From: Spirochaetota bacterium
Lineage (GTDB): Bacteria > Spirochaetota > UBA4802 > UBA5550
Length of the DNA: 64,000 nucleotides
Direction of reading: 5' to 3'
Assembly: GCA_041753395.1 (NCBI GenBank)
Contig: JBGSUQ010000030.1
Span: forward strand, 10,133-74,132
A model generated the notes under the pieces. It worked only from the letters and a program-made list of their open reading frames with translations. It ran no database searches and was not told where the DNA came from. Below, one piece after another: positions 1,002 through 35,842 of this stretch (its first letter is position 1; every line of letters starts with the position of its first letter). The position numbers and the translations under genes were made by a program.

Positions 1002-1039
1002 TATAGTTATCGGTTACCTGTTTTCATCCGATAACTATC
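1002..1039. repeat. inverted pair of the over-represented word CCGATAACTATC
   Basis: TATAGTTATCGG (1002-1013) and CCGATAACTATC (1028-1039) face each other across a 14-nt spacer, about 57 nt upstream of the ATG at 1096. See findings. Confidence 0.6.
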
Positions 1040-1095
1040 AGGAATCCCTAAAAATAAGAATTGATCAATATCGTCATCCCTGCTACTACACACAA

Positions 1096-1614
1096 ATGAA
1101 GCGAATTCTTCTCCTATGCACTGCTGTCATAGCCCTGTTTCCCCAGGGATGCCGGGACAACATCGATGAATTGATCCGGAACGGAGACTTCGAAGCCGGG
1201 TATTACTACCACAGCGGCGGCTTGCCGGCGGACCGGTTCGTAATCATTACAGTCGTGATCAACAAAAACGGCGGCGCTCTGAAACGTGAGGAGCGGTCAG
1301 CCAGTGATACAAAAAAAAATAGAGAAACTTTGACGCTCTTCAGAGTATCCAACGCGGACCTCAAAAAGCTCTATTCAACACTGGAACAGCAGGGCTTCTA
1401 TGCATTAAAAACAGTACAAATCGAAAATCCCGGCGCCAGGACCTTGTACCTCAAAATTAAAGCAGGCAGTACACAATATATCCAGGAGGAAAGCCCTGTT
1501 TTGTCCATGGCGTCCAATTTTGACAGGCGGAAATTCATGTCTATCATAAGCAAATTCAACGTCTTCGTGAAGGAGAGACTCCCGGCTGGACAGAAGCCGC
1601 TGGTTGATTTCTGA
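1096..1614 (+). CDS. secreted protein/probable lipoprotein, function unknown
   Basis: 172-aa ORF with N-terminus MKRILLLCTAVIALFPQGC (signal peptide ending in Cys). Confidence 0.65.
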   Translation: MKRILLLCTAVIALFPQGCRDNIDELIRNGDFEAGYYYHSGGLPADRFVIITVVINKNGGALKREERSASDTKKNRETLTLFRVSNADLKKLYSTLEQQGFYALKTVQIENPGARTLYLKIKAGSTQYIQEESPVLSMASNFDRRKFMSIISKFNVFVKERLPAGQKPLVDF

Positions 1615-1674
1615 ATGGATTTAGTAATCATCAATCCTCTATTTCTTGACACAATAAGGTAATTGCGGTAAGCA

Positions 1675-1691
1675 GGTACAGGTACTGTACC
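1675..1691. promoter_or_regulatory. 7-3-7 perfect inverted repeat, candidate metalloregulator operator
   Basis: GGTACAG-gta-CTGTACC lies 44 nt upstream of the ATG at 1735 and just downstream of a TTGACA at 1646-1651. Confidence 0.35.
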
Positions 1692-1734
1692 CTGCCGGAA
1701 CAGCAGGATGCGAAGTCGACAGAACGGAATAATT

Positions 1735-2592
1735 ATGAAAAAAAACTTTTTTTGCTCTGCAATACTAGCTGCGATTCTTATTACCGGATGCGGCAAGACG
1801 GGGGACAGGGCGGCACCATCCGGAATCAGGGTTGCCGTGTCTGTCTTCCCGCTCTATGATATCGCGCGGAATATCTCCGGCGACAGGGGGTCAGCTTTTT
1901 ACGTCATTCCCGCCGGTGCGGATCCCCATACCTTTGAGCCCAGGCCGTCAGTTGCCCGCGATTTGCAGAACACGACACTCTTCATAGGCGTCGCCCGCGA
2001 ATTCGATGGATGGATCGAACGCTATCTTCCCGCCTCTTCAGCCCGGTCCTATCTGATTGATACAAGGCGTGGCGCGCCGGAGCCGAACCCCCATATATGG
2101 CTCAGCGTGAAAAAAGCCAGGGAGATCGCCGAAGCCATGGCGAAGCAGATGAGCGCCGTTGATCCGGTGAATAGCAGGTACTACCGGGACAACCTAAGGG
2201 CCTACGAGGAGCAATTGAATGCGCTTGACAAATCCATTGCAGCCCTGTTCCTGAATACGACTAGGAAGTACTTCATCCAGTGGCACGAGGCGTGGAACTA
2301 CTTTGCTGCCGATTACGGGCTCACCATCGCTGCCACAGTCCAGCGCGAGGGCAGCGAGAAAGCCTCGGTGAGGTCAATGAAAGAGATCGTTGACCGGGCT
2401 CGGCGGGACAACATAACCGCCATCGTCGTGAGCCTCTCTTCTGAGGACAGGACCGCGCGGGTCCTGGCGGGTGAGATCGGGGGAACCATCGTGAGGCTCG
2501 ACGGCACCGGCGATCCCGCATCTTTGGACCGGTCGACGTACCTTAAATTCATGAAATACAACGCGGAAAAGCTGGCAGACGCATTGCGATAA
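1735..2592 (+). CDS. metal (Zn/Mn/Fe-type, cluster-9/TroA-like) ABC transporter substrate-binding lipoprotein
   Basis: MKKNFFCSAILAAILITGC lipobox. ZnuA/TroA-like sequence (DPHTFEP, NPHIWLS). The ORF track begins at 1708; I prefer the ATG at 1735 before the signal peptide. Confidence 0.85.
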   Translation: MKKNFFCSAILAAILITGCGKTGDRAAPSGIRVAVSVFPLYDIARNISGDRGSAFYVIPAGADPHTFEPRPSVARDLQNTTLFIGVAREFDGWIERYLPASSARSYLIDTRRGAPEPNPHIWLSVKKAREIAEAMAKQMSAVDPVNSRYYRDNLRAYEEQLNALDKSIAALFLNTTRKYFIQWHEAWNYFAADYGLTIAATVQREGSEKASVRSMKEIVDRARRDNITAIVVSLSSEDRTARVLAGEIGGTIVRLDGTGDPASLDRSTYLKFMKYNAEKLADALR

Positions 2593-2606
2593 TACAAGGA
2601 GTAATT

Positions 2607-3377
2607 GTGGGAGAAGCAGTGATATCATTAGAAAAGGTGTGGGTCCGGTACAACGACAGCGTGATCCTCGAGGACGTGAGCCTTACGGTTAATACGGGGG
2701 AGATCCTTTCCATCGTTGGACCCAACGGGAGCGGCAAGAGCACCCTCCTCCGCACCATCATGGGCTTCAAAGAGCCCTACCAGGGCACCGTCACGGTGCT
2801 AGGGAAGCCCCCCCGGAAAGCACCCCGGGGATCAATCGGTTACCTCCCCCAGAAGAGCACTGTGGACTTTACCATGCCGGTCAGCGTCTTTGACGTTGTC
2901 GCCATGGCCCGCTACGCCGGCAAGGGGATGTTCGAACGCCTGAATGGCGAAGACCGGTCCCGTATCGAGGAAGTCCTGAAGCAGGTGGAGATGGCTGACA
3001 AGATAGGCCACCATTTCGGCAGCCTCTCCGAGGGACAGAAGCAGCGGGTACTCATCGCCCGGGCCCTTGCCGTGGGACCGAAAATCCTGCTCCTGGACGA
3101 GCCGTCGACCGGCCTGGACGCCTTGGCACAGGACAACTTTTATCAGATGCTCCTGTCACTACGCACTTCGATGAACCTGACCATCGTCATGGTTTCCCAC
3201 GATATCGGCGCTGTATCAAGCATCGTTGACCGGCTGGCGTGTCTCAAGACCAGGCTGCATTTCCATGGCACGCCCGGAGATTGCCTCTCCAACGAATCGC
3301 TCTCCAGCGTGTTCGGGAAAAATGTCTATTACGTCAAACACGATAAAAACTGCGAGGGATGCGGAGAAAACAAATGA
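2607..3377 (+). CDS. metal ABC transporter ATP-binding protein
   Basis: GTG start with AAGGAG at 2596-2601. Walker A GPNGSGKST, signature LSEGQKQR, Walker B LLLDEP. Confidence 0.9.
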   Translation: MGEAVISLEKVWVRYNDSVILEDVSLTVNTGEILSIVGPNGSGKSTLLRTIMGFKEPYQGTVTVLGKPPRKAPRGSIGYLPQKSTVDFTMPVSVFDVVAMARYAGKGMFERLNGEDRSRIEEVLKQVEMADKIGHHFGSLSEGQKQRVLIARALAVGPKILLLDEPSTGLDALAQDNFYQMLLSLRTSMNLTIVMVSHDIGAVSSIVDRLACLKTRLHFHGTPGDCLSNESLSSVFGKNVYYVKHDKNCEGCGENK

Positions 3378-4186
3378 TAGAACTATTCCAGCTCCAATTC
3401 TTCCGCAACGCCTTTATCATGAGCTTAATCGTGGGTGTACTCTTCGGCATCCTATCCTTCTTCGTTGTTATGCGGAAGATGTCCTTCCTGGGAGCCGGCA
3501 TCGCTCATACCGCCTTCGGAGGCGTGGCCCTGGGCGTGCTCCTGGGGATCGATCCCTTCCTCACATCCTTCGCCTTCTGCGTGGCGGCGGCGATACTTAT
3601 CGGCAAGATGGTACGCTACGGCAGAATATCCTTCGACATGGGAATTGGCATATTCTTTTCGTTTTCCATGGCCCTTGGGGCCATCTTTCTCTCGCTGAAA
3701 AAGGGGTACTCCTTCGACCTCATGAGCTACCTTTTCGGGAACATACTGGCTGTTACCCCGGCTGACAATATCATCGCCCTGGCGACACTGGCCGTCTTCG
3801 TCCCCTTTATTTTCATATTCATCCACCGGATTCTCTTCATGACCATGGACGAGGAGGTGGCGGCCGTGAGCGGCGTCCGCACGGAACTGCTAGACACGAT
3901 CCTCCTAGTTTTCCTCGCGGGAATCATAGTCATCAGCATAAAAATCGTGGGGATTATACTGATATCGGCGCTGGTGGTTCTGCCGGCGAGCTTTGGCCTG
4001 CTGGTATCGAAGGATTACCGGAAGGTCATCCTGTCCGGCATCGTCTTTACGGTTGTAGTGATGATCGGGGGGCTCTTTCTATCCTATTTTCTGGATACGC
4101 CGGCCGGGGCCACCATGGTAACGGCAGGAACCATCCTCTATTTCCTCTCACTGGGAATGGTGAAAATTATCCTTCCCGACCGCTGA
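3374..4186 (+). CDS. metal ABC transporter permease (ZnuB/TroC-like)
   Basis: Multi-TM protein. The ATG at 3374 overlaps the upstream stop (ATGA); the ORF track start at 3359 is also possible. Confidence 0.85.
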   Translation: MIELFQLQFFRNAFIMSLIVGVLFGILSFFVVMRKMSFLGAGIAHTAFGGVALGVLLGIDPFLTSFAFCVAAAILIGKMVRYGRISFDMGIGIFFSFSMALGAIFLSLKKGYSFDLMSYLFGNILAVTPADNIIALATLAVFVPFIFIFIHRILFMTMDEEVAAVSGVRTELLDTILLVFLAGIIVISIKIVGIILISALVVLPASFGLLVSKDYRKVILSGIVFTVVVMIGGLFLSYFLDTPAGATMVTAGTILYFLSLGMVKIILPDR

Positions 4187-4188
4187 CA

Positions 4189-4794: not shown

Positions 4795-5750
4795 GGCAGG
4801 TACCTGTACTCGATCCGGTAATTATTTTCCTGCTCCAGGCTCCGCAGCCCCTGCTCCATGAGGTTCTGGCCGCGGAACATGCCTTCCATCCTGAATAACA
4901 TCTGCTCAAAAGGTGACTTCATTTCTTCATAGACCGGGCAGTCCTCGGAGAGCTTCGCCATCTGACGCGCCTTGTCAATGGCGTCCTCGAAGGTACCCAG
5001 CATGTCTACAAGCTTGTTTTTCAAAGCAGTCTCGCCGCTCATCACACGGCCGTCGGCAATGGGCTGAATATCGGATTCATTCTGGTTTCTGCCGAGTGCC
5101 ACATCTTTAAGAAATTTCCGGTATGACGAATCGATTATCTCCTGTATGAGCTGACGCTCCTCCGGGCTGATGTCCCGGAAGGTTGAGAGTATGTCTTTGT
5201 ATCTCCCGCTCTTGATGACATTCATATCGATCCCAATTTTTTCGAAGAGCCGGCGAAGGTTCGGCGACACCGCTATCACGCCGATGGACCCGGTAAGGCT
5301 CCCGTGGTTGGCCACGATGTAGTTGCACGCGGAAGCAATGTAATATCCGCCGGACGCAGCAATCTCCCCCATAGAGGCCACGAGGGGAATGTTCTTTTTT
5401 CTCAGCTTCCAGAGCTTCTGGTATACTTCCTGGGAGGCTCCAACAGTGCCCCCGGGAGAATTTATCCTCACCACCACAGCCTTGATGTCGCTGTTGCGCT
5501 CGAGGTCGTCAAGGCGGCGTATGATATTTTCTGCGCCCTGGGTCATGCTCAGGGGAGAAGTTGAGCCTATCATCTGTATAGCCCCTTCAACGCGGACGAT
5601 ACCTACCCCGGACCCCATCTGCGGCCCCCGGAAGGACATCCCGGCGCCGCGTTTCTGCTGCATATTCATGCTGATGTCTACAATCGCTATAACCGAAGAA
5701 AGGACCAGCAGTGCCAGTATGGAAATGAGTATTTTTCTGTTTCGATCCAT
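4791..5750 (-). CDS. sppA: signal peptide peptidase SppA (36K type)
   Basis: N-terminal TM, then a ClpP/crotonase-fold S49 peptidase sequence (RINSPGGTVGASQE, IAASGGYYIA). Confidence 0.9.
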   Translation of the reverse strand: MDRNRKILISILALLVLSSVIAIVDISMNMQQKRGAGMSFRGPQMGSGVGIVRVEGAIQMIGSTSPLSMTQGAENIIRRLDDLERNSDIKAVVVRINSPGGTVGASQEVYQKLWKLRKKNIPLVASMGEIAASGGYYIASACNYIVANHGSLTGSIGVIAVSPNLRRLFEKIGIDMNVIKSGRYKDILSTFRDISPEERQLIQEIIDSSYRKFLKDVALGRNQNESDIQPIADGRVMSGETALKNKLVDMLGTFEDAIDKARQMAKLSEDCPVYEEMKSPFEQMLFRMEGMFRGQNLMEQGLRSLEQENNYRIEYRYLP

Positions 5751-5818
5751 TGTTTTGCCTTATGACAAGTATAGTTATGCTTCGATATTCGGATAGTTAT
5801 CGGTATACAGAAAATAAA

Positions 5819-6115
5819 TTAATAGTGAGTTTTCCCGATGCAGATGCAAGCATACACCATGTCTTTGGGCGGCTCACATTTGTTTTTTTTCACAAATACT
5901 TTCATACTCGGATCAACGCCATCACAGGTACAATAGCTCACGGTTGTAAGCTCCTGACGGGATATGCTGGTCTTGGCTATCATTTCCGCCAGAATTACTT
6001 CCTGTTCGCAAATGTATACTTCAACGACCTGGTAGAGGCCCCTATTCGTACTATGGAGAACGCTTGTAACAACAAACAATAAAACAATGGTCACCAGTAG
6101 TATCAATCGTTTCAT
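5819..6115 (-). CDS. small secreted/anchored Cys-rich protein, unknown function
   Basis: 98 aa with N-terminus MKRLILLVTIVLLFVVTSV and 6 Cys in the mature part. Lower G+C than neighbours. Confidence 0.5.
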   Translation of the reverse strand: MKRLILLVTIVLLFVVTSVLHSTNRGLYQVVEVYICEQEVILAEMIAKTSISRQELTTVSYCTCDGVDPSMKVFVKKNKCEPPKDMVYACICIGKTHY

Positions 6116-6275: not shown

Positions 6276-6286
6276 CATGAATAATG

Positions 6287-6630
6287 GAGGGGGACATAAG
6301 CCGAATTCTGTTTATGCAGCAATCTATCTTGACCGGATGTTGCCATACGGTTCTGTGCGACCTACCCGCAGCTTCGAACGGGCCGTCCTCAAACAGCTGC
6401 TTACTTGGTCTTGCACCAGGTGGGGTTTACCTTGCCGTCGGCATTACTGCTGACGCGGTGAGCTCTTACCTCACCATTTCACCCTTACCCCTTGCGGGGC
6501 GGTATCTTTTCTGTTGCACTTTCCATCGCCTTACGGCGCCCGGGTGTTACCCGGCACCCTGCCCTGCGGTGTTCGGACTTTCCTCACCGCCCGCCTCGCG
6601 GCAGGCCAGCGCTACTGCTTGGCCCCCTCC
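6287..6630 (-). ncRNA. rnpB: RNase P RNA, bacterial type A
   Basis: The reverse complement carries the universal blocks GAGGAAAGUCCG, AGGGCAGGGUGCC, AGUGCAACAGAAA, GGUAAGGGUGAAA, GGUAAGAGC, GGUAAACCCCACC and ACAGAAUUCGGCUUAU. P1 pairs GGAGGGGG (5') with CCCCCUCC (3'). Ends are +/- a few nt. Confidence 0.95.
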
Positions 6631-6684
6631 ATGTATATCAATAACGATAAAGCTATTATGTGGCAAGTATAATTCATACTTTTT

Positions 6685-7146
6685 TTATGTTATGCAGTAT
6701 ATTGGGTGTGACATCAATTTTGCAGTTACTCCCCAGGAAAAGACCCAGTTGACTATATCATCAATTATCAATTTATTCATCGCATAACTTATTAAAGGAT
6801 AGTTATCGGGATTATTTTTCATTGAATCAACCATTTCATCAAGATATTCATCAATCGCTTGAGCTACAAGAAGGGATACGGATTTCTTGAAGGTTTTCCT
6901 TAAATCAAGAAACAATTCATATTCTCCTGGCCTCAAGCCAATATGCAGACGATGATATCCCCCCTTCTCCACTCTTTTTTGATACTGTATCTGTTCCCAC
7001 ATTTTTGAAAACCTATCATGATCTCTGGAAAGACGAAGCATTAATGAAGAAATAATTGATCCTTTCGATCGTCCTGTAAAAATTGATGCATTAACGAGTA
7101 ATTCAAAATAATAATTCTTTATATTTAATGTAGTTTCTATATTCAT
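6685..7146 (-). CDS. hypothetical protein in a low-GC islet (possibly DUF1564-like)
   Basis: 153-aa ORF at roughly 35% G+C by eye versus about 55-60% in neighbours. From memory it resembles Leptospira DUF1564 proteins (YQ...G...R...F segment); not verified. Confidence 0.55.
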   Translation of the reverse strand: MNIETTLNIKNYYFELLVNASIFTGRSKGSIISSLMLRLSRDHDRFSKMWEQIQYQKRVEKGGYHRLHIGLRPGEYELFLDLRKTFKKSVSLLVAQAIDEYLDEMVDSMKNNPDNYPLISYAMNKLIIDDIVNWVFSWGVTAKLMSHPIYCIT

Positions 7147-7254
7147 ATCACCCTCACTGGAGATATTAACGAACAGTAGAACGTGATACGAAAATTTTTT
7201 TACAACCGATAACTATCTATACACATATTGTAGTTGGATTCACAGGTATTATCT

Positions 7255-8691
7255 CTAATCATCTTCCATCTCTCGAGCACGCCTGATAAGGTTTATTGCC
7301 ATGTCGTGGAATATAAGGAAGTGTGAGGGTTTAAGCAGGTACCAGTAGACATACCCCCACAGTCCATGGGGAAGGAAATAAGCGGTCTGCACCAAGGAAT
7401 TCCCGTCTATATGGAATTCAAGCCATGCCTTTCCTGGTAGTTTCATCTGAGCAAGGAGAAGGAGCCTTTTGTCCTCCTGGATATCCGCAACCTTCCAGAA
7501 GTCCAGACTGTCCCCGATACGGAGGTGATCGGCATCTCTTCTTCCCCTGCTCATGCCGTAGCCGCCGATTAGTTTATCCAGGTAACCGCGGATCTCCCAT
7601 AAAAAATGATAAGAAAACCACCCGTTTTCACCTCCCAGCGCCATGATGGATCGGAACATATGGTGCGGCGATATATTCCCGAAATCCTTTATCTTCCTGT
7701 CCAGGAGCACCTCGTGGGCAATCTCATCATGGCCCTTGACGTCGCACAATTCAGCGCCGCTGCTGTCGCTCCATCTGCTCAAAACCTGTTTATTTTCGAT
7801 GTCATCAACTGCTTTGCGCATGGCCGCTTCGAATGACGCGGGAACGATACGGGGAAAATATATTTCAACGTTCCTGTTCCGGATCAGGGTTTCGCATCTT
7901 AATCCCTTCAGAAGCGCCACGGTCATGTGCCGGGGCACTGGAAAAATATTTATAAAAAATGCGGATGCCAGTCTGAGGGTCCAAGCGGGGATGGGAATGA
8001 TATATCTTTTCACCCCGATCACTTCGGCCGTTTTTTTGAGTATATCCCGGTAACTCATTATATCCGAGCCAATATCGATGACCACATCTCCCTTCACAGC
8101 GAGGTCCCTGGCGCCGTTAAGATAGGACAGGACGTCATCAACAGCAATCGGTTGTGTCATGGTATCGATTGAGCTGGGAGCAACCATGACCGGCGCTTTT
8201 TCCACAAAATTCCAGAGTATCTCGAAGCTGGCGCTGCCGGAGCCGATGATCATTGCGGCGCGAAACCAGATGGTCTGGATCCTGACAGGGCGGGCGGAGA
8301 GAATTTCACCCGTCTCGATGCGGCTCAGGAGGTGCTTGCTCGCGCATTCCTTAATGCCCAGTCCGCCGAGATATATAATCCTTTTAACGCCTGCCTCGAT
8401 ACAGGCTTCCCTGAAGTTCTCGGCGCTGATGCGGTCAAGTTCCCTGAAATCGCCTTTTGCTCCCATGGAGTGGATGAGGTAGTACGCAACATCGATTCCC
8501 CGGAGAGCAGCCTTGAGGGACTCCTTGTCAAAAGATGATCCCTCAACGATATCGACTTTCTTTCGGGAAACATCTTGGATCTTCTTTACATTTCTGACAA
8601 AAAGCCGCAACTCCACACTTTCATCCTCAAGGAGTTTAACTTTCAATCTGCGCCCGATATAACCAGTTGCACCTGTCAGCAGCACTTTCAT
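7255..8691 (-). CDS. NAD(P)-binding SDR/NmrA-like protein with C-terminal DUF2867-like domain
   Basis: MKVLLTGATGYIGRRL Rossmann motif at the chosen start. The ORF track extends to 8724. About 478 aa. Confidence 0.8.
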   Translation of the reverse strand: MKVLLTGATGYIGRRLKVKLLEDESVELRLFVRNVKKIQDVSRKKVDIVEGSSFDKESLKAALRGIDVAYYLIHSMGAKGDFRELDRISAENFREACIEAGVKRIIYLGGLGIKECASKHLLSRIETGEILSARPVRIQTIWFRAAMIIGSGSASFEILWNFVEKAPVMVAPSSIDTMTQPIAVDDVLSYLNGARDLAVKGDVVIDIGSDIMSYRDILKKTAEVIGVKRYIIPIPAWTLRLASAFFINIFPVPRHMTVALLKGLRCETLIRNRNVEIYFPRIVPASFEAAMRKAVDDIENKQVLSRWSDSSGAELCDVKGHDEIAHEVLLDRKIKDFGNISPHHMFRSIMALGGENGWFSYHFLWEIRGYLDKLIGGYGMSRGRRDADHLRIGDSLDFWKVADIQEDKRLLLLAQMKLPGKAWLEFHIDGNSLVQTAYFLPHGLWGYVYWYLLKPSHFLIFHDMAINLIRRAREMEDD

Positions 8692-11600: not shown

Positions 11601-12601
11601 TGCCTAAAACAATACTACCGGGACACGGGAGCGGTGGGAAGCTCATGAACGAGATGATCGACACGGTCATCCGGAAGCGCTTCGGCACTGGGAACGTCCA
11701 GCTTGATGATTCTGCGGTCCTCACCATCGGAGGTTCTACCATCGCCTTCACCACAGACACCTTTACCATCACACCGATCTTTTTCCCCGGCGGCGATATC
11801 GGGAAGCTCGCGGTGAACGGCACCGTTAACGACCTCGCAATGATGGGCGCCCGGCCGCTCTTCATATCGTGCGCTCTCATCCTGGAAGAAGGGCTCGACT
11901 TCGCGGACCTGGAGCGGATCCTCGACTCGATGAAATCGGAGGCGGACCGGGCCGGCGTAGCTATCGTCACCGGCGACACCAAGGTGGTTCCCAATGGCAA
12001 GGCTGACAGGATCTTCATCAACACCTCTGGCATCGGCATCATTGACAGAAAAATCCAGCGCGGGGAGATCGTCCCGGGAGACCGCATCATCGTGAGCGGC
12101 ACCATCGGCGACCACGGCATGTCTGTCATGGCCCTGCGCAACAGCCTGTCCTTTTCCCGGGGCCTGCAATCCGACTGCGCCCATCTAAACCACATGATCG
12201 CGAAGATCACCGATAACTATCCGGACAGCATCAAGTTTATGCGCGACCCGACCAGGGGCGGCGTGGCTTCCGTCCTGAATGAAATCGTGAAGGGAAAACA
12301 ATTCAGCGCCATGCTTGCCGAGGAGACCCTCCCCATCCGTGACGAGGTGAAAGGTGTGTGCAGCATCCTCGGCATCGAGGCCCTATACGCGGCCAATGAG
12401 GGCAAGGTTGTGCTCATCGTCAGGGAAGCTGACGCCAGCGGCATTGTGCAGATACTGAGGACAACTCCTGAAGGGAAAGACGCTACCGTGATCGGTGAAA
12501 TAACCACAGCGTTCCCGGGAAAGGCCTATATCGAAACGGCTATCGGCGGCAGAAGGATACTGCCGCTCCTAACCGAAGAGCAGCTGCCCAGGATATGCTG
12601 A
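11597..12601 (+). CDS. hypE: hydrogenase maturation protein HypE
   Basis: The ATG overlaps the hypD stop (ATGA). PurM-like fold sequence and the conserved C-terminal ...PRIC. Confidence 0.93.
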   Translation: MMPKTILPGHGSGGKLMNEMIDTVIRKRFGTGNVQLDDSAVLTIGGSTIAFTTDTFTITPIFFPGGDIGKLAVNGTVNDLAMMGARPLFISCALILEEGLDFADLERILDSMKSEADRAGVAIVTGDTKVVPNGKADRIFINTSGIGIIDRKIQRGEIVPGDRIIVSGTIGDHGMSVMALRNSLSFSRGLQSDCAHLNHMIAKITDNYPDSIKFMRDPTRGGVASVLNEIVKGKQFSAMLAEETLPIRDEVKGVCSILGIEALYAANEGKVVLIVREADASGIVQILRTTPEGKDATVIGEITTAFPGKAYIETAIGGRRILPLLTEEQLPRIC

Positions 12602-12859: not shown

Positions 12860-12861
12860 CA

Positions 12862-23976: not shown

Positions 23977-25788
23977 TTAATGTCCCTCGATGTTTGAATT
24001 TCTTCCCGCGGTCTTGCAGTACTCCTGTACCGCCCTGTTCATGTCGAATTCGGTCACATAATCCACACCCTTCTGCAGCTTTGCTTCGTATGCGTCGCGG
24101 AAATTCTCGATGGTGGTCGAGATCGGGTTCGGTGACGTCTGCCCCAGGCCGCAGCGGCTCGTGGCCCTGACAATGGTACACCAGTCTGCGAGTTCCTTGA
24201 GGTCGGACCCGGTGCCCCTGCCCGCCATGATCTTTTCAAGGCGCTGCTTGAGGAGCACATTACCTGCCCTGCACGGTGTGCACCATCCGCACGATTCCTC
24301 AACGAAGAAATCCATGAAGTTGTGAACTATTTTCAGCAGGTCGGTATTGGGTCCGATGATAATGATGGAGCCGCCGGTGGGGAGTTCCTCGAAGGAAAGT
24401 TTTTCCCCGAAGTCCTTTTTACCCACACACTTGCCTGAAGGACCACCCACCTGGACCGCCACGGCATCGGAGCCGCCGGCATCATCGAGGAGGCTCTGCA
24501 GAGTGGTGCCGAACTCAACTTCATAAATGCCCGGCTTAGAACAGTCGCCGGATATGGACAGGACCTTAGTGCCGTGGGACTGGAAGGTCCCCATCCTGGC
24601 GAACCACTCGCCGCCCTGGACCATGATACGCGCCGCCGCGCAGAGACTTTCCACGTTATTGACCGTCGTGGGGTATCCCAGATAACCATTCTGCGCAGGG
24701 AACGGCGGCCGGTTCCGCGGCTCGCCCCGTTTTCCTTCAGCGGATTCTATCAGAGCCGATTCCTCGCCGCATATATAGGCGCCGGCGCCGAGCTTTATTG
24801 TAATGTCAAAATTAAAACCTTTTTTCCCCGCGACATTCTTGCCCATGAGATTGTTGTTCCTCATTGTTTCAAGGACGCTCTGGAGATACTTCAGCAGGTA
24901 TTCGTATTCAGCCCTCAGGTAGAGGACCCCTTCTTCGGCACCGATAGCGTATCCCGCCACGGTCATACCGTCAAAGAGCATCTGCGGCAATTCAGTCAAT
25001 ATGACGCGGTCCTTGAAGGTACCCGGTTCGCCTTCATCGGCGTTGCAGACCACATACATTTTCTTGCCATTAGAATTGCGGGTAAATTCCCATTTCATAC
25101 CGGTGGGGAACCCTGCGCCGCCCCGGCCGCGAAGGTTCGATTTTTTAATTTCCTCGATGACCGCTTCCGGCGTCATGCCCACGGCTTTCTTGATCCCGGA
25201 GCCGGTCTCGTAAGGTGCGAATATCACCGGACCTTTTTTCTGGATGTTGTTCTTAACCATGGCACCGATCAAAGCGGACTGGTTCTGTCCATCCCCGGTC
25301 TCCTTAACCATGGTCTTGACATCTTTCCCGGCCTTCATCTGGAACACGAGGTCTTTCGCTTTTTCCGGCGTAAGGTTCGTGAATACAATGCCGTTGATCA
25401 GTGCCGCCGGCTCCTGGTCGTTCATACCGATATCGGAAGTGTCATACAGACCGATCTGACCGTCGAATGTCGTTACTCCGAAGGAACACCCCGCCGCCTG
25501 CTCAAAGGCTTTGGCCACAGCATCTCTCCCTTTCATTTCAGCCACGGCGCTGTTGTTCAGGTAAACCGTGTATTTTCCCCTGGGCTCTTTTGAAAAGAAA
25601 TGATAGAAAGAAACAACACCATCAACGTCAACCTTAGAAACACCCAGGTTAATGGCGATGGCGGCTGATGCCTCATCCGAAACGAAGCCAAATTCACCCT
25701 GCACTTCGCGGATAATATCGAGCATCATGGTAGCGTCTTTGCCATGCTTCTTCACAGCTCTTGTGACTACATCACCTATACTGCCCAT
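23977..25788 (-). CDS. hoxF: diaphorase NAD/FMN subunit HoxF (NuoE-like + NuoF fusion)
   Basis: GRGGAGFPTGMKWEF, GEPGTFKD, ESCGWCTPCR. The N-terminal thioredoxin-like domain lacks the four Cys ligands. Confidence 0.92.
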   Translation of the reverse strand: MGSIGDVVTRAVKKHGKDATMMLDIIREVQGEFGFVSDEASAAIAINLGVSKVDVDGVVSFYHFFSKEPRGKYTVYLNNSAVAEMKGRDAVAKAFEQAAGCSFGVTTFDGQIGLYDTSDIGMNDQEPAALINGIVFTNLTPEKAKDLVFQMKAGKDVKTMVKETGDGQNQSALIGAMVKNNIQKKGPVIFAPYETGSGIKKAVGMTPEAVIEEIKKSNLRGRGGAGFPTGMKWEFTRNSNGKKMYVVCNADEGEPGTFKDRVILTELPQMLFDGMTVAGYAIGAEEGVLYLRAEYEYLLKYLQSVLETMRNNNLMGKNVAGKKGFNFDITIKLGAGAYICGEESALIESAEGKRGEPRNRPPFPAQNGYLGYPTTVNNVESLCAAARIMVQGGEWFARMGTFQSHGTKVLSISGDCSKPGIYEVEFGTTLQSLLDDAGGSDAVAVQVGGPSGKCVGKKDFGEKLSFEELPTGGSIIIIGPNTDLLKIVHNFMDFFVEESCGWCTPCRAGNVLLKQRLEKIMAGRGTGSDLKELADWCTIVRATSRCGLGQTSPNPISTTIENFRDAYEAKLQKGVDYVTEFDMNRAVQEYCKTAGRNSNIEGH

Positions 25789-27227: not shown

Positions 27228-28505
27228 TTATGCGTTTTTACCTTTAGGTGCCTTGTAAACCATGGCAATCAGAAAACCAACAGCTAAAAGACCGGCTGCG
27301 ATATACAGCGCCTGGGGTTTAAATGCCTCGAAAACAAGGGGGCCGATAATACCGGCGGCGCTCCATGCAGTGAGCATGAATCCATAGACCTTGCCGATAT
27401 AGGCCGGGCCGAAGGAGTCAGCTGCAAAAGCAGGCATGGTGGCGAAGCCGCCGCCGTAGCATGCGAGCAGGTAGCAGGACACTACGATGAAGAGCGTGTA
27501 ACTGGGCACATAGCCCATGGCAACGAGCAGATACAAAACGGACTGGGTTGCGAACATGATCATGAAGACCATCTTGCGGCCGATATTGTCTGAAAGTTTT
27601 GCCCAGAAGAGCCTTCCAAGACCGTTAAATATGGCGGCAATAGCTACAACGGTTCCGCCGGCAGCTGCAATAACTGCTGCATCGACTACATCGGGGTTTG
27701 AAAAAGTAAAAGTTTTCTGAGCCAGCGGAGAGTGCTGGGAAATTAGTCCAAGACCGGCTGAAACGTTGAGGCAGAGCATCGCCCACAGCATCCACCACTG
27801 AGGCCTTTTTACCGCTTCGCCGAACTGGAAGGAATCAGCAGCAGAAACGGATGTCTTGGCAGGGGTAAACCCGGCAGGCAGCCATCCCTTTGGCGGGTTC
27901 TTGAACAGCTGGGCCGCGCCCACAACAAGAACAAGAAAAATAACGCCCCAGATATACCAGGTCATGGCCACACCGGTAGAGGTGACCTTGCCGGCTTCGT
28001 CAACCACATTGTAAGCCTTGATCATGGCAGGTGCAATTTTTCCCATGAAGAATGCGCCGGCGCCGAAACCCATAACGGCCAGGCCGGTAACCAAGCCGCG
28101 CTTGTCAGGGAACCATTGGATCAGGGTCGCGATAGGAGTAACATATCCGAAACCATTACCAAGGGCCGCGATTACGCCAAAGCCGATATAGAGAAGTGCA
28201 ATGTTTCCTGTCTGGGCAGCATAACCTGCGACCAGGGTTCCAATACCGAAGAGAATACCGCCGGTGGTAGCCACAAAACGGGGGCCTTTTTTAAGCACCA
28301 GCGTTCCGCCAAAGGAGGCTGCAAGTCCAATGATGAGCATCAGCAGCATGAAAGTATACTGCACCGTTTTTCCGTCCCAGCCCCACATGTCCATCAATGG
28401 CAGTTTAAAAACAGACCATGCGTACACGGTACCGAGGCAGAGCTGTATAACAACAGCCGCGATGGCAATCAGCCATCTTTTTGATTCCAGGTTCTCGTTA
28501 CTCAT
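27228..28505 (-). CDS. MFS transporter, oxalate/formate antiporter (OFA) family
   Basis: 12-TM MFS with an OFA-type N-terminus (RWLIAIAAVVIQLCLGTVYAWSVF). Sits directly downstream of the fdh genes. Confidence 0.85.
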   Translation of the reverse strand: MSNENLESKRWLIAIAAVVIQLCLGTVYAWSVFKLPLMDMWGWDGKTVQYTFMLLMLIIGLAASFGGTLVLKKGPRFVATTGGILFGIGTLVAGYAAQTGNIALLYIGFGVIAALGNGFGYVTPIATLIQWFPDKRGLVTGLAVMGFGAGAFFMGKIAPAMIKAYNVVDEAGKVTSTGVAMTWYIWGVIFLVLVVGAAQLFKNPPKGWLPAGFTPAKTSVSAADSFQFGEAVKRPQWWMLWAMLCLNVSAGLGLISQHSPLAQKTFTFSNPDVVDAAVIAAAGGTVVAIAAIFNGLGRLFWAKLSDNIGRKMVFMIMFATQSVLYLLVAMGYVPSYTLFIVVSCYLLACYGGGFATMPAFAADSFGPAYIGKVYGFMLTAWSAAGIIGPLVFEAFKPQALYIAAGLLAVGFLIAMVYKAPKGKNA

Positions 28506-30394: not shown

Positions 30395-30408
30395 TTCATT
30401 ACCCCCGC

Positions 30409-33111
30409 CTACATGTTAATCTTTTCGATTTTACACGCACAGACCTTGTACTCAGGCATCTTGCATGTTGGATCGAGGGCGTCTATTGTCAGCTTGTTAG
30501 CAGCCGCCTCGACAAAGTGGAAGGGGATGAAGGCCACGTTCGGCATCGGGCGGTCGCTGATCCGCGCCTTTATCCGTATGCTACCCCTGCGCGTCGAGAC
30601 CGACACCAGCTCTCCGTCCTTGATGTTGTAATTACTCGCCTCATTCGGATTCATTTCAACATAATTCTCGTTTACGGTCTCCACAAGGATGCGCGAATTC
30701 CTGCTCATGGTTCCGGTGTGGAAATGCTCCAGTATCCGCCCCGTGGTCAATATGACCGGGTATTCCGGGTCCACTTCCTCCGCCGGCGGCGTGTACTCTA
30801 TGGCGCTCATCAGGCCCAGGCCACGGGAAAACTTTTCCCTGTGCAGATACTGCGTTCCCGGATGGGTCTCGTTGGGACACGGCCATTGTATGAGCTCTTT
30901 TTCGAGCCGCTCATAGGTGATGCCCGCGTACGACGGAGTCACGGTGCGCACTTCGTCGAAGATGTCCCGCGCCGACTTGTAATCCCATGGCACGCCCATC
31001 CTGTTTGCAATCTGTGTCAATATCCACCAGTCCTCTCGGGAATCGCCAGCCGGTTCGACCACCCGGTGCATCAGCTGCACCCGGCGCTCCGTATTGCTTA
31101 CGGTCCCCTCTTTTTCCAGGAATGCGAAGCCGGGGAGCACCACGTCGGCATACTGCGCTGTTTCAGTCATCATAATGTCCTGCACCACAACAAAATCGAG
31201 CTTCTCCATCGCCTCGATCACGTGGTGCTGGTTGGGATCGGACATGACCGGGTTTTCACCCAGAACGTAAAGTGCCTTGACGTCGCCGGCAATGGCCCCG
31301 TTAAGGGCCTCGACGATGGTCAGGCCCGGCTTGGCCGAAAGCTCGAAGGCGACCTTCCATGCTTCCTTGAACTTCTTCTTGTTGTCCTCGCTTCCCACCG
31401 GCTGGTAGGCCGGGTAGACCGCGTTGAGGGCTCCCATGTCGCAGGCGCCCTGGACGTTGCTCTGGCCGCGGAGCGGGTTCACGCCGCCGCCGGCCACGCC
31501 GATGTTGCCGAGAAGCATCTGGAGATTGGCGCAGCACTTAACGCCGTTGACCCCTGACTTGAACTGCGTAATACCCATGCAGTAGTAGAGGGCCATCGGC
31601 TTTGCTTCCGCCAGGATCCGCGCGGCCTTTACGATCAGCGACGGATCTTCAATGCCGCAGATGGAAGCTACGTGCTCCGGGGTATACTTTTCCAGAGTCT
31701 TTTTCAGCTCATCAAAACCCTCGCACCGGCTCGTCACATATTCCGCGTCGTGAAGGTTTTCCTTGAGAATAACATGGGCCAGTCCGTTCAGGATGGCGAT
31801 GTTGGTGCCCGGCTTTATCTGCAGAAATACATCTGCGTATTTAGCAAGTTCAATCCTTCTCGGGTCAACCACAACAAGCTTCTTCTTATTGAGGATGACC
31901 GCTTTCTTGATCATGGACCCGATGACAGGGTGGTTCTCGGTAGTGTTAGATCCGATTACGAGAAACGCCTCCGAAAGGGGGATCTCCCTGATCGAGTTAG
32001 TCATTGCTCCTGAACCGAGTGTTGCCGCCAGACCGGCGACAGTGGAGCTGTGGCACAATCGGGCGCAGTGATCGACATTGTTTGTTCCGATCACCGCCCT
32101 CATGAATTTCTGCATTAGGTAGTTTTCTTCATTAGTACACTTTGCCGAGGAAAAGGCCATGATGGAATCAGGGCCGCTCTGCGACTTGATATCCGACAAC
32201 CGGGAAGCCACAAGACCGAGGGCCTCGTCCCAGCTTGCCTCCTCGAATTTACCATTCTTCTTGATCAGCGGCTTCGTAAGGCGCTTGTCGCTCTGCACGA
32301 AATCAAAGCCGAAACGGCCCTTAATGCAGAGATGGCCTTCGTTGGGCCCGTTATCGTTGCCCATGGCCTTGACGAGTTGTCCTTCCTTGTTTGTATAAAA
32401 ATCAATCTGACACCCGACCCCGCAGTATATGCAGACGCTCGTTTCTTTCTTCAATTCCCACGCCTGGCCCCTGCCCAGTACGGTCTGGAACGAAAGGGCG
32501 CCCGTGGGGCAGAGCTGAACGCAGGTGCCGCACTGGACACAGGTGGAATCGCCGATAGGCGCGTACGCATCCGATGTCAGGTCGGTCGATGATCCCCTGC
32601 CGGTGAAGTCCCACACGCTGTTCATCTGTATTTCACTGCAGGCCTTGACGCAGCGACCGCAGAGGATGCAGCGGTTTTCATTGCGGCGGAGGCCCTTGCT
32701 CGAAACGGTATCCACCATACGCTCGCGGTGGGGGAACGCGCCGGTCGGCTCCGGCACCTCATAGCGGTGGCAGAGCCGCTGAAGCTCGCATTCGCCGTTC
32801 CACTCGCAGTAGAGGCAGTTATGGTCTCCTTCGGAGAGAAGCATTTCGAGAAGGCTCCTGCGTACCTGACGGATCTCGTCATCATCAGTATCGATTTTCA
32901 TCCCATTTGCCGCGGGTTCTGTACAGGACGTCTTTAATGCGCTATCGTTTATGCGCACCATGCATATCCTGCAGGCGCCTGTCTTGGTGATTCGTGGGTG
33001 GAAGCAGAGGTAAGGAATATCAATATTATTTTCCCTTGCGATTTCAAGAATCGTCTGGCCTTTTTTGCCGTTTACCTGCTTCCCGTCAATGGTTAGCTGG
33101 ATAGTATCCAT
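30409..33111 (-). CDS. fdhA: formate dehydrogenase alpha subunit (NuoG-like Fe-S N-terminus + molybdopterin domain), Cys type
   Basis: 900 aa with N-terminal 2Fe-2S/4Fe-4S motifs, Mo-bisPGD domain CIYCGVGC, and active-site region HCARLCHSSTVAG (Cys, no in-frame TGA). AAGGAG RBS. Confidence 0.9.
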   Translation of the reverse strand: MDTIQLTIDGKQVNGKKGQTILEIARENNIDIPYLCFHPRITKTGACRICMVRINDSALKTSCTEPAANGMKIDTDDDEIRQVRRSLLEMLLSEGDHNCLYCEWNGECELQRLCHRYEVPEPTGAFPHRERMVDTVSSKGLRRNENRCILCGRCVKACSEIQMNSVWDFTGRGSSTDLTSDAYAPIGDSTCVQCGTCVQLCPTGALSFQTVLGRGQAWELKKETSVCIYCGVGCQIDFYTNKEGQLVKAMGNDNGPNEGHLCIKGRFGFDFVQSDKRLTKPLIKKNGKFEEASWDEALGLVASRLSDIKSQSGPDSIMAFSSAKCTNEENYLMQKFMRAVIGTNNVDHCARLCHSSTVAGLAATLGSGAMTNSIREIPLSEAFLVIGSNTTENHPVIGSMIKKAVILNKKKLVVVDPRRIELAKYADVFLQIKPGTNIAILNGLAHVILKENLHDAEYVTSRCEGFDELKKTLEKYTPEHVASICGIEDPSLIVKAARILAEAKPMALYYCMGITQFKSGVNGVKCCANLQMLLGNIGVAGGGVNPLRGQSNVQGACDMGALNAVYPAYQPVGSEDNKKKFKEAWKVAFELSAKPGLTIVEALNGAIAGDVKALYVLGENPVMSDPNQHHVIEAMEKLDFVVVQDIMMTETAQYADVVLPGFAFLEKEGTVSNTERRVQLMHRVVEPAGDSREDWWILTQIANRMGVPWDYKSARDIFDEVRTVTPSYAGITYERLEKELIQWPCPNETHPGTQYLHREKFSRGLGLMSAIEYTPPAEEVDPEYPVILTTGRILEHFHTGTMSRNSRILVETVNENYVEMNPNEASNYNIKDGELVSVSTRRGSIRIKARISDRPMPNVAFIPFHFVEAAANKLTIDALDPTCKMPEYKVCACKIEKINM

Positions 33112-33568
33112 CGGAAACTCCTTTTTTCGTGATTCCTTTACCTATGGTAATATATTGTTGGTATTGGTTTGATTATGGCTGCATAATTCGTTTTTGATGT
33201 ATATAACAGTGGTGAGATTCTCATAGTATTATTAGTTAATAAAATTTAATAATACAGCTTTTTGCTATATTGTTTTTTGTTAATATTTAATCACTTATTT
33301 AGGGGATACTGTCATAAATGGCCGAAAAAAAACAAGATTAATTTATTAATAGAAATCAAAAAATGAGACAGAATAATGAATCACCATGAGGATTTCTCTA
33401 CAATCTAAAATAATTGAATAATTTATATTTTAATCTGATCTTCCCGATATTCTTGTGAAAAAAGGCAGTATATATGGAGGGATTAACTGCTGGATCAATC
33501 CGGGTTCAGAGAAAAATGAGTATAATCTCAAAACAGGACAGGGGGGATGAAGTATTGACTGATAACAA
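33112..33568 (-). promoter_or_regulatory. 457-bp intergenic region with AT-rich core upstream of fdhA
   Basis: Core about 33125-33470 at roughly 20-33% G+C on hand-counted lines. No credible ORF. Confidence 0.6.
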
Positions 33569-35842
33569 TCAGCATGACGGGTCAAGGAGACTTTTCGCCA
33601 CCGCGAGCTGCCCCAGGGCGATGCAGCCATCATTGCAGGGGACCTGTTTGTGGGTATATACCGTGAAGCCTTTTCCGCGCAGAACATCGATGATCCCCTC
33701 CAGGAGGACCCGGTTGTGAAAAACCCCGCCGCTCAGAGCAGCATCATTAAGGCCGGTCGCCGTGCGTATCCTGTCAGCAACCGCGGCTGTGGTGTGGATT
33801 ATGGCCTGGTGGAACGCGGCAGCGATATCATCCGCGGCAACGCCTTTCTCAATGAGGGAGACGATATGGGCAATCAGTTCGTCCGTACCGATAACTATCG
33901 GTCCATCAGCTGAAAAAGGCACGATATAAGGCCGCTCCGGTGCCCTGCCCCGCATGGCTGCCTCCTCCAGAAGCTGGGCAGCTTCCGCCTCGGCGCTCAC
34001 TGAGCGGGCTATGCCCAGGATGGCCGCCACGCCGTCAAATATCCGTCCGATACTGCAGGTTAGGGGCGAATTGATGTTCTTCTTTATTATCTCGATAACG
34101 CCGGTTGACGATTCATTGCGCTCCATCACCGGATAGTTATCGCCATACCGCTGATAAAGAAGGGACACGCCGATTTTCCACACATCCTTGATGGCGCTCT
34201 CTCCACCGGGCAGGGAAAACTCGCTAAAATGTGCCGCCCGCTCGAAACCGCCGCGGCTGGCCAGGAGGAATTCACTCCCCCACAGGGTGCTGTCGGTGCC
34301 GTAGCCCGTGCCATCAAATGCAATGCCGATCACCGGGCCCTCAAGGCCATTTTCCTCCATGACCGCCGCTATATGGGCGTGGTGATGCTGAACCTCAACC
34401 AGGCGCTTCCCCCGTGAAGCGAGTTCCTCAGCGTGCTGCCGGGTGAGATACGCCGGGTGCGCATCAGCCACTATCACCTCTGGATCGGCGTCGAATATCC
34501 TGATGAAGTGGTCCACTGTACGCTGGAACACCTCGTAGGTAAGCGGGTCCGCCATATCGCCCAGATACTGGCTCATGATGATGAAATTTTTTCTGGCAAT
34601 GGCAAAGCTGTTTTTTAAATCTCCGCCGGTGGCAAGCATGGTGACCGGTGAATTGCCCGATAAAAAGGGGACCGGGATGTACCCCCTCGACCTGCGTATG
34701 AAGTAGGGTTTTTTATTGACCACGTAGAGGACGCTGTCGTCCCCCTGGCCGATGATCTCCCTGTTATAGGTCACGAAATAATCGGCTATCCGCCCCAGGC
34801 GGTCGAACACCGTGTCGTCGCGGTACTCGATCGGCTCGTCCGAAACATTGCCGCTGGTCATCACCATGACCATATCGGGATCAATGATAAAGAGGTGGTG
34901 CTGGAACGGTGCGTAGGGGAGCATGATCCCCAGGTAGGTAAGGCCCGGCGCCACCTGCCGGCTGAGATCATGCCGCGTCTCCCTGAGGAGCACGATGGGC
35001 CGCTCCTTCGACATCAGCAGATCGCGCTCTTCCGGACCGATCTCAAGGAACCTGCCGGCTGCATCGGCAGATCCCGCCATGACGGCAAAGGGCTTGAAAG
35101 GGCGCCGCTTTCTCTTCCTGAGCTCCATGACGGCGGTATCGTTCCGGGCGTCGACTGCGAGATGGTACCCCCCTATACCCTTGATGGCCAGGACCGCCCC
35201 CTCTTTCAGGAGGGCTACGGTCCTTTCAGCCACGGTCTCATTCTCCGATTCAATCAGATCCTTTCTACTATTATAAAGAGTTATACGTGGTCCGCAGACA
35301 GGACACGCATTGGGCTGGGAGTGAAAGCGCCGGTCCATCGGTTCGGTGTATTCCGCCAGGCACCGTTCACACATCGGGAAAGGGTCCATAGCGGTGTTTT
35401 TTCTGTCATAAGGGATATCACGGACGATACTGAAGCGCGGTCCGCAGTTGATGCAGGTTATGAAGGGATAGTGGTGACGCCGGTCAGACGGGTCATTGAA
35501 CTCTTCGTGGCACCGGTCGCACAGGGCTACATCGGGCGAATAGAAAGCGAGACGCTCCGCTGTCACCACGCTCCGGTCGATACTGAAATCCGCCCGGCCC
35601 GAGGGCGCCGACCCGCTGACATCCACCGACATGATCAGGGCCAGGGGCGGTGCGGTTGCCGTCAGTTCCCGGAGGAAGATATCCAGCTCATCGCTTCCGC
35701 CATCGGCATGGATGATGACCCCTTCTGTGTCATTGAGGACACTTCCGGTGATATGGTGCCGATGCGCCAGCTGGTACACGAAGGGACGAAACCCGACGCC
35801 CTGAACGATCCCTTTTATCCTGATGTTCAGCGATTTTTTCAT
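33569..35842 (-). CDS. hypF: carbamoyltransferase HypF
   Basis: Acylphosphatase start IRIKGIVQGVGFRPFVY, four CxxC zinc-finger motifs, and YrdC-like and Kae1-like domains. Confidence 0.93.
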   Translation of the reverse strand: MKKSLNIRIKGIVQGVGFRPFVYQLAHRHHITGSVLNDTEGVIIHADGGSDELDIFLRELTATAPPLALIMSVDVSGSAPSGRADFSIDRSVVTAERLAFYSPDVALCDRCHEEFNDPSDRRHHYPFITCINCGPRFSIVRDIPYDRKNTAMDPFPMCERCLAEYTEPMDRRFHSQPNACPVCGPRITLYNSRKDLIESENETVAERTVALLKEGAVLAIKGIGGYHLAVDARNDTAVMELRKRKRRPFKPFAVMAGSADAAGRFLEIGPEERDLLMSKERPIVLLRETRHDLSRQVAPGLTYLGIMLPYAPFQHHLFIIDPDMVMVMTSGNVSDEPIEYRDDTVFDRLGRIADYFVTYNREIIGQGDDSVLYVVNKKPYFIRRSRGYIPVPFLSGNSPVTMLATGGDLKNSFAIARKNFIIMSQYLGDMADPLTYEVFQRTVDHFIRIFDADPEVIVADAHPAYLTRQHAEELASRGKRLVEVQHHHAHIAAVMEENGLEGPVIGIAFDGTGYGTDSTLWGSEFLLASRGGFERAAHFSEFSLPGGESAIKDVWKIGVSLLYQRYGDNYPVMERNESSTGVIEIIKKNINSPLTCSIGRIFDGVAAILGIARSVSAEAEAAQLLEEAAMRGRAPERPYIVPFSADGPIVIGTDELIAHIVSLIEKGVAADDIAAAFHQAIIHTTAAVADRIRTATGLNDAALSGGVFHNRVLLEGIIDVLRGKGFTVYTHKQVPCNDGCIALGQLAVAKSLLDPSC

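Follow-up and report, generated by a model that had tools for sequence, protein, structure and literature searches.

A recurrent near-palindromic DNA word in Spirochaetota and its tie to a family of predicted tandem ribbon-helix-helix proteins

A short DNA word that recurs in and between genes, and its relationship to the product of one AT-rich gene, were studied in a 64-kb stretch of chromosomal DNA from an uncultured Spirochaetota bacterium (contig JBGSUQ010000030.1); the whole of this stretch is referred to as the window. The window encodes a ZnuA/ABC-3 transporter, sppA, hypA, hypD, hypE, hypF, hypB and a Hox-type NAD-reducing [NiFe] hydrogenase, together with a formate-dehydrogenase-like enzyme, chemotaxis and signalling genes and a beta-oxidation operon. 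The word is the 10-mer GATAACTATC, usually seen as the 12-mer CCGATAACTATC, and the AT-rich gene is ORF153, whose product is a predicted tandem ribbon-helix-helix (RHH) protein. A comparison with PLSDB gave no plasmid match for the first 12.7 kb of the window, the 33-nt palindrome likewise had no plasmid match, and the window contains neither origin-linked genes (dnaA, parAB, gid) nor a GC-skew switch.

A recount returned seven perfect copies of GATAACTATC, at 1030, 7208, 12212 and 33890 on the forward strand and at 5792, 6798 and 34132 on the reverse strand, six of them carrying a 5′ CC, and the near copies at 1002, 53511 and 63849 that had been listed in the original prediction were also found (Table 1). 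That prediction had placed the chance expectation at about 0.1 for the 10-mer and below 0.01 for the 12-mer; Markov models of orders 1–4, counted over both strands, gave 0.05–0.14 for the former, in agreement, and 0.004–0.011 for the latter, close to the earlier figure. Allowing up to one mismatch produced 15 matches to GATAACTATC, compared with 2.83 ± 1.78 in dinucleotide shuffles, none of the 100 shuffles reaching 15, and an unbiased k-mer census ranked CCGATAACTATC first among the 12-mers of the window. The over-representation of the word is therefore real and far beyond chance. The one-mismatch matches at 522, 3592, 4432, 13192 and 33561 resembled chance or conserved coding sequence, the variant at 3592 being the same across relatives because it sits within a conserved transporter gene. 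A search of the literature with the word and its variants returned primers only, or nothing, and a topical search gave nothing relevant.

In its fuller form the word reads A-CCGATAACTATC-(C/G)(G)(T), which is nearly palindromic around an AC centre that does not vary. Seeding with TAACTA in 270 kb of related loci yielded the 16-bp near-palindrome A-CC-G-A-TAACTA-T-C-(C/G)-(G)-(T), in which the left arm and the AC centre were best kept; the box is also written out as ACCGATAACTATCGGT. A CRP/FNR-like reading of the GAT-N4-ATC core had been raised earlier and was not borne out, as CCGAT-N4-ATCGG at up to one mismatch gave 8 matches against 4.25 expected, all with an AACT or AGTT centre bar three that resembled chance or conserved coding sequence. 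Versions with other centres were not enriched, and therefore the AACT centre belongs to the recognised word. A sigma-28 (FliA) promoter was considered separately. The sigma-28 -10 element is GCCGATAA, with TAAA ~15 nt upstream and a fixed orientation to the gene. The word contains CCGATAA, yet no TAAA stood out by eye at the -35 position in the 125 site contexts listed, and copies in both orientations and inside genes also count against this promoter.

The positions of the copies are collected in Table 1. The promoter-like placements described in the original prediction, before the ATG at 1096, before sppA and before the ATG at 7146, were confirmed at the distances listed. The inverted pair at 1002/1028 comes after a hairpin at 933–981, is missing or degenerate in the related locus L122, and precedes an ORF of 172 aa, to which no function was assigned, and then the ZnuA/ABC-3 metal transporter operon. 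Of the seven, four lie in coding sequence (one in hypE, two in hypF and one in ORF 6685–7146, which is ORF153), and in three of these (hypE, hypF and ORF153) GAT AAC TAT CC is read as Asp-Asn-Tyr-Pro with identical codons, as had been stated before. The tetrapeptide D-N-Y-P is over-represented in its own right, with 3 occurrences in ~19,000 codons. The copy at 7206 is inverted with respect to the one inside ORF153 at 6798, 408 bp away.

Table 1. Copies of the word in the window, and the gene of its putative binding protein.
Feature	Position	Strand	Remarks
Near copy CCGATAACTATA, 1 mismatch	1002..1013	-	Forms an inverted pair with 1028-1039, of which it is the left arm; spacer 14 nt
Exact CCGATAACTATC	1028..1039	+	56 nt from its end to the ATG at 1096
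Exact word	5792..5803	-	41 nt upstream of the sppA (S49 peptidase) ATG at 5750; sense orientation for sppA
ORF153, 153-aa tandem RHH protein (predicted)	6685..7146	-	AT-rich, 33% GC in a 52% window
Exact word inside ORF153	6798..6809	-	Codes Pro-Asp-Asn-Tyr-Pro; position carries the word across the family
Exact word	7206..7217	+	59 nt upstream of the ORF153 ATG (7146); 38 nt past the stop of the DUF2867/NAD-binding gene
Exact word in hypE	12210..12221	+	Read Thr-Asp-Asn-Tyr-Pro; evolutionarily labile
Full 14-mer CCGATAACTATCGG in hypF	33888..33901	+	Antisense to the gene; read Gly-Pro-Ile-Val-Ile-Gly
GCGATAACTATC in hypF	34132..34143	-	Sense orientation; Gly-Asp-Asn-Tyr-Pro
Near copy CCGACAACTATC(CGA), intergenic	53511..53522	+	105 nt upstream of the ATG at 53406, AMP-binding enzyme gene
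Weak near copy GATAACTATA without CC flank	63849..63858	+	Upstream of ORF 62529-63602; membership doubtful

The fold of the ORF153 product was explored by structure prediction. The AlphaFold2 (AF2) model built from a single sequence was useless (pLDDT 44), while that built from five sequences showed a beta-alpha-alpha arrangement twice over (E3-10/H11-24/H28-41 and E64-71/H73-86/H90-110) with a pLDDT of 66 and a pTM of 0.63. The best matches of this model in the Protein Data Bank by Foldseek were chains E, F and G of the F-plasmid relaxosome (prob 1.0, E 4e-3, target-normalised TM 0.5–0.67), which we take to be TraY, the Foldseek output giving no chain names; single-chain Arc was matched as well. 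The first 44 positions of a family profile made from 110 members aligned with the whole of CopG (E 0.0023), and also with the MazE and VapB antitoxins. ORF153 had no match in Pfam even at E ≤ 10, and below-threshold matches to RHH_1, RHH_5 or RHH_3 were seen in 5 of 29 family members, with weak aCcr1 matches in addition. A tandem RHH fold resembling TraY and CopG can thus be assigned to ORF153 with moderate confidence. Strand 1 is predicted to present T5, T6 and N8 to the DNA groove, and strand 2 to present W64 and H68. These residues hardly vary across the family, as would suit a DNA target that is itself conserved.

A word-index homologue search found only five relatives of ORF153, and the family looked like an orphan, an impression corrected by an exhaustive HMMER profile search that recovered at least 668 representative clusters; for 449 of these, E was 1e-10 or lower. 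Nearly all lengths were 140–200 aa among the 150 best clusters listed. The family is previously undescribed and is covered by no Pfam or NCBIfam model, and its named members were from Spirochaetota in every case. A single contig of 4.8 Mb (CAVSFD010000002.1) carries three paralogs, at 0.03, 2.25 and 4.63 Mb. ORF153 is much faster-evolving than its neighbours, orthologues being 61–67% identical compared with 86–90% for neighbouring proteins, and the GC content of all nine family genes examined was 13–21 points below that of their host loci (32–44% vs 49–58%). No viral relative was found for the paralog P0240. Rfam model RF00010 identifies an RNase P RNA gene (294 bits) between ORF153 and sppA, at 6282–6630 on the reverse strand; a mechanically called ORF of 167 aa at 6284–6787 is almost certainly spurious because it overlaps this RNA gene.

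The copy of the word inside the family's own gene was followed across increasingly distant members. It was identical in five ORF153 orthologues. The DNA of eight more distant members, 29–44% identical to ORF153 at the protein level, was then compared, a range over which synonymous sites should be randomised. Four of these (L203, L204, L205 and L206) carried the exact word at the conserved Asp-Asn-Tyr codons and two more (L202 and L208) carried it with one mismatch. L207 kept the core GATAACTAT only, and L200, which has Ser-Asn-Tyr at this position, had no internal copy but two exact copies 80 and 144 nt upstream. Among 222 aligned family proteins, 74% have Thr, Pro, Ser or Ala (NCN codons) just before the Asp, and 84% have Arg, Leu, Pro, Gln or His just after the Tyr. 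The second set is chemically disparate and consists of exactly the amino acids with CNN codons. Together these restrictions show a family-wide constraint at the nucleotide level on xCC GAT AAC TAT Cxx. The DNA-level constraint advanced in the original prediction is upheld by this codon-class pattern; the identical codons in hypE, one of the grounds given for it, are no proof of a constraint at that particular site, since relatives have GAC AAC TAC or D-A-Y-P there.

Conservation of the individual sites was examined in relatives. A protein-guided scan of reference genomes identified syntenic loci (L122, L123, L124 and L125) in metagenome-assembled genomes of Spirochaetota, with 86–90% protein identity and one of them on a single 4.8-Mb contig, and these contained 5, 4, 3 and 5 exact copies of the word, respectively. 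The copies upstream of ORF153, inside ORF153 and upstream of sppA stood at orthologous positions. The copy at 7206 was kept in L123, L125 and L130 and had one mismatch in L122. The hypE copy was kept in L122, lost by synonymous changes in L125 (GAC AAC TAC) and lost with an amino-acid change in L130 (D-A-Y-P). The densest conserved cluster of the word was that around ORF153, in five species.

The intergenic region before ORF153 varied in content. Some relatives have a gene for a 537-aa methyl-accepting chemotaxis protein (MCP) at this point (L125 11449–13329, with equivalents in L123 and L130), which is not present in the window (7206–7260) or in L122. A copy of the word at the DUF2867 gene's stop codon lies on one side of the MCP gene and an inverted copy upstream of ORF153 on the other, and in L122, L124 and L125 the TAA within the word is itself the DUF2867 stop codon. 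Upstream of sppA, relatives have two direct copies 70–72 nt apart (e.g. L122 12949–13032), and the window is without exactly one copy plus spacer.

The distribution of the word beyond the window was studied in 12 related loci totalling 270 kb from at least eight genomes, most of which had been ascertained via the word or a word-carrying gene; 40 exact 10-mers were present against 0.5 expected, so that a local fluke, the outcome on which the original prediction was to fall, is contradicted. About half of the 40 copies were intergenic and 18 (45%) were called coding, yet ORF calls span ~90% of the 270 kb. In 124 kb that had been reached through the protein family and not through the word, 10 copies lay more than 150 nt from a family gene (~1 per 12 kb), and the density in related loci overall was ~1 copy per 7–12 kb. 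When metagenomes were scanned for ATAGTTATCGG-N(0-30)-CCGATAACTAT, the word as an inverted pair, 57 loci were returned, ~20 of which were window-like in tetranucleotide composition, one being assigned to Spirochaetota by its LepA protein. Loci of the clade contained intergenic arrays of 2–5 copies within ~150 bp, tight pairs being 17–22 bp apart centre to centre; L157 has five direct copies at 21–22 bp spacing that end 25 nt before a start codon. Orthologous arrays diverged by point mutation rather than insertion, and this turnover, together with the tight spacing, makes the arrays look like protein-binding sites.

The surroundings of these copies were also inspected. The genes around the 57 metagenomic pairs belonged to no common family, and the neighbours at clade loci (AAA ATPases, a MacB-like ABC component, a TonB receptor, a citrate transporter, a TetR regulator and CobU) showed no functional theme. 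No Rfam family was found at the arrays, an RNase P RNA and one c-di-AMP riboswitch being the only matches and neither lying at an array. Viral contigs contained no 14-mer pair, and in a scan of viral contigs for the single 14-mer only single copies, consistent with chance, were seen among the matches listed. An apparent orientation bias towards downstream genes was traced to the ascertainment of pairs in the [-,+] arrangement, unbiased sites being mixed. A second clade-specific word, GGGGTCAGAGCA, occurs in or beside arrays of the main word (L161 2097, L163 4870, L165 2371 and 2471, L197 ~11885) and does not occur in the window. At L178 7060–7090 there is a variant inverted pair with an AG/CT centre in both arms, CCGATACTTATCGG-TTA-CCGATAAGTATCGG, a concerted two-arm change.

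Part of the 57 pair matches are probably generic long hairpins or tandem 15-nt coding repeats and unrelated to the word. Tandem 15-nt repeats of CCGATNNNNATCGGN (L171 1059–1100, L173 30–71, L175 1586–1640) would encode Gly-Pro-Ile-x-Ile pentapeptides if translated, and are probably a separate phenomenon that matches the pattern by accident. The inverted pair CCGATAGTTATCGG-N-CCGATAACTATCGG was present in low-GC metagenome contigs (L141, L145–L150, L153, L154, L158, L164, L167 and L177), with no further copies in their flanks, and L158 was placed in Bacteroidota by a neighbouring type IX secretion system (T9SS) protein. Contigs of the PDWJ01 series (L151, L155, L162, L183, L189, L190, L193 and L195), from an organism of 31–35% GC, have a 30-nt perfect palindrome, GATAGTTATCGGGCTAGCCCGATAACTATC, 7–10 nt from contig ends, which suggests a multi-copy element that breaks the assembly.

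On the best-supported interpretation of these data, to which we give a probability of about 0.5, a Spirochaetota-restricted family of ~150-aa tandem RHH proteins, with ORF153 as its member in the window, has (A)CCGATAACTATC(C/G)(G) as its cognate box. Since the family's genes carry the word within their coding sequence, it is most likely the site that this family binds. It is this tie, between the word and an undescribed multi-copy tandem RHH family that carries the word in its own genes, that is the new element, and ORF153, the low-GC ORF that the original prediction had not recognised as a binder, is the probable one. The operator of a global regulator, one of the explanations put forward there, is accordingly the option now favoured, with binding itself the part that rests on inference. 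Under this interpretation each protein would be a single-chain pseudo-dimer whose two-stranded beta-sheet enters the major groove of the near-palindromic box, and such a pseudo-dimer could allow both the asymmetric AC centre and an unequal, weaker right arm. The box upstream of the gene and the box at the Asp-Asn-Tyr codons, ~410 bp apart in 4–5 species, may serve autoregulation or act as a nucleation point. Further boxes, 10–80 nt upstream of starts, at gene ends, in arrays with a spacing of about two helical turns and occasionally inside genes, might let the protein or proteins act at many other loci, as a global regulator or a nucleoid-associated protein.

It could be, more ambitiously, that the word marks a chromosome-wide system specific to Spirochaetota, in which several fast-evolving, AT-rich, single-chain tandem RHH paralogs share one word of 12–14 bp, hard-wired in their own genes so strongly that it decides which residues can stand beside the Asp-Asn-Tyr motif, and present in several hundred copies per genome, with a role in nucleoid organisation or self-marking and not that of an ordinary operon repressor. 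This is a tentative proposal and is on the doubtful side.

A number of points weigh against the family as the binder of the word. The AF2 model of ORF153 is of moderate confidence, 12–13 invariant bases would make a long site for one RHH unit, and three paralogs at ~35% identity would need to read one word. The genome of L207 uses a dialect, (T/G)GGATAACTATC, and the flanks of its in-gene copy fit neither the dialect nor the standard word. No covariation was found between residue 66 and the in-gene flanks. Coding copies outside the family gene, such as that in hypE, are not conserved, and the same inverted 14-mer pair occurs in low-GC contigs, one of them from Bacteroidota, a phylum from which there is no named family member. 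Finally, conservation of the in-gene copy shows that the gene needs the word, not that the gene product binds it.

Comparison with characterised systems bears on the same proposal. TraY is the classical case of two RHH units joined in a single chain, a protein that recognises asymmetric sites and bends the DNA, and ORF153 is predicted to share this architecture. However, ORF153 has no Pfam TraY match and so no membership by sequence, it carries a further conserved domain at its C-terminus (NY...CW.IYWG.P), neither an oriT nor genes for a relaxase or conjugation were found near it (in the window and around nine family genes), and its family is chromosomal, multi-copy and Spirochaetota-restricted. 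RHH repressors of the CopG, Arc and MetJ type and RHH antitoxins bind short repeated or palindromic operators cooperatively, and the family profile matches CopG, MazE and VapB through its 44 N-terminal residues. These repressors are homodimers with operators at their own promoters, whereas the ORF153 family would be a fused pseudo-dimer, and its word, 12–14 bp long, recurs about once per 10 kb, with one copy inside coding sequence. Near-palindromic boxes of 12–16 bp that recur in and between genes are known from parS inside spo0J/parB, from Noc and its binding site (NBS) and from SlmA and its binding site (SBS). The likeness extends to one copy lying within the gene of the presumed binder, but the folds there are helix-turn-helix/CTPase or TetR, not RHH, and intergenic arrays of 2–5 copies are not typical of them. 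The word also differs from parS, TGTTNCACGTGAAACA, a 16-bp palindrome near oriC, and gives no sign of origin-proximal clustering; a parS/ParB centromere was rejected given this different sequence and the lack of origin-linked genes in the window, the site in its own gene being the only analogous feature.

Other explanations for the word would dispense with the RHH family as its reader. A different regulator or a nucleoid protein might bind the box, with the RHH-family genes no more than the best conserved of its targets; that the word is kept inside and upstream of the gene speaks only to a need of the gene for it, which suits this idea, as does the word's presence in a few contigs of organisms where the family is not known. 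It is nevertheless rather unlikely, as no other DNA-binding gene recurs beside the word and the sole family always linked to it has a DNA-binding fold with conserved groove-facing residues. Alternatively, the word may be a small palindromic repeat, of the repetitive extragenic palindromic (REP) or bacterial interspersed mosaic element (BIME) type or another, forming a hairpin in DNA or RNA (a terminator, an mRNA stabiliser or a selfish element) that is selected or spreads without a dedicated regulator. The near-palindromic unit, the intergenic arrays in alternating orientation, the inverted pairs with spacers of 1–27 nt, often near gene ends and sometimes over a stop codon, the decay by point mutation, the L178 pair in which both arms changed together (CCGATAAGTATCGG) and the second word in the same arrays all speak for such a repeat. 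We consider it unlikely, however: the conserved single and direct-repeat copies cannot make a long hairpin, the unit is 14 nt compared with 20–40 nt for REPs and also occurs in coding DNA, no spacer sequence is common between loci, arrays change by point mutation and not insertion, no Rfam family matches, and the copy fixed family-wide in a protein-coding gene is left unexplained. The 25 Pfam families seen most often in the neighbours included neither a Y1 transposase nor a RAYT (111 further matched families lay outside that list). A MITE (a miniature transposable element bounded by inverted repeats), which the original prediction had already dismissed, was likewise rejected on the varying length and sequence of the spacers, the point-mutation differences between orthologous arrays and the in-frame genic copies.

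A site for recombination or DNA transfer (att, res or oriT-like), at which a TraY-like RHH protein serves as an accessory DNA-bending factor, was also weighed, TraY being a relaxosome accessory protein that ORF153 resembles. Two indels are bounded by the word. One is the MCP gene, which some relatives have between two inverted copies and others lack, and the other is the clean loss in the window of one copy and the 60-nt spacer between direct copies upstream of sppA. These leave room for a recombination role, but events mediated by microhomology would give the same outcome, and the 72-nt loss is explicable by slippage on 14 nt of microhomology. In addition, ten contigs of one species from different samples were structurally identical, with no inversion or excision, no recombinase or relaxase was found near any family gene (window and nine family genes), and hundreds of such sites per genome would be hazardous, making this explanation quite improbable. 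An inverton was rejected in its own right, as 15 of 15 contigs covering the 6798/7206 pair were in one orientation and inversion of the hypF segment would create stop codons. Very improbable, too, is a DNA uptake sequence such as the DUS of Neisseria or the uptake signal sequence (USS) of Pasteurellaceae, although an over-represented 10–12-mer on both strands, lineage dialects (L207), some inverted pairs at gene ends and coding copies in permissive frames are features in common. Known uptake sequences are roughly uniform at ~1 per kb and depend on competence machinery, and competence is not known in this group of spirochaetes. The word, ~10-fold sparser, is strongly clustered in arrays of 2–5 within 150 bp, enriched between genes and tied to a DNA-binding family rather than to pilus or competence proteins, its hypE copy is not conserved across relatives, and an uptake role accounts neither for the in-gene copy kept across the RHH family nor for the link to that family; the uptake-signal-like word suggested in the original prediction is thus a poor fit. 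That the word is a local fluke or a by-product of Asp-Asn-Tyr-Pro protein motifs has practically nothing to commend it. Three of the coding copies do spell D-N-Y-P, and the family's proteins do conserve D-N-Y as a motif, but about half of the copies are intergenic, seven were observed against ~0.1 expected, and selection on the protein cannot yield the codon-class restriction of the flanking residues.

If the RHH family does read the word, an unannotated family of at least 668 clusters would gain a defined DNA word, and a regulator-site or nucleoid-protein-site system would be added for its hosts, poorly studied environmental spirochaetes of anaerobic digesters, sludge and sediments. The word kept within the family's own genes, among members only 30–40% identical, is a clean natural case of a DNA-level constraint shaping a protein alignment. 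There would be a practical handle as well, since family members could be used to predict the box and the box to predict family members. For annotation, the copies in hypE and hypF are best regarded as evolutionarily labile passengers.

Two further palindromic words were observed in the window. A perfect 14-bp palindrome, ACTGACATGTCAGT, occurs three times (54208–54221, 54317–54330 and 55222–55235), flanking a TetR-family gene at 54420–55082 and lying upstream of the acyl-CoA dehydrogenase/beta-oxidation operon, and is probably a local TetR operator. A GC-rich palindromic word, CGCCGGCGCC / GCGCCGGCGCC, is present five times, at 24778–24790, 28054–28066, 52837–52848, 59084–59096 and 60609–60623.

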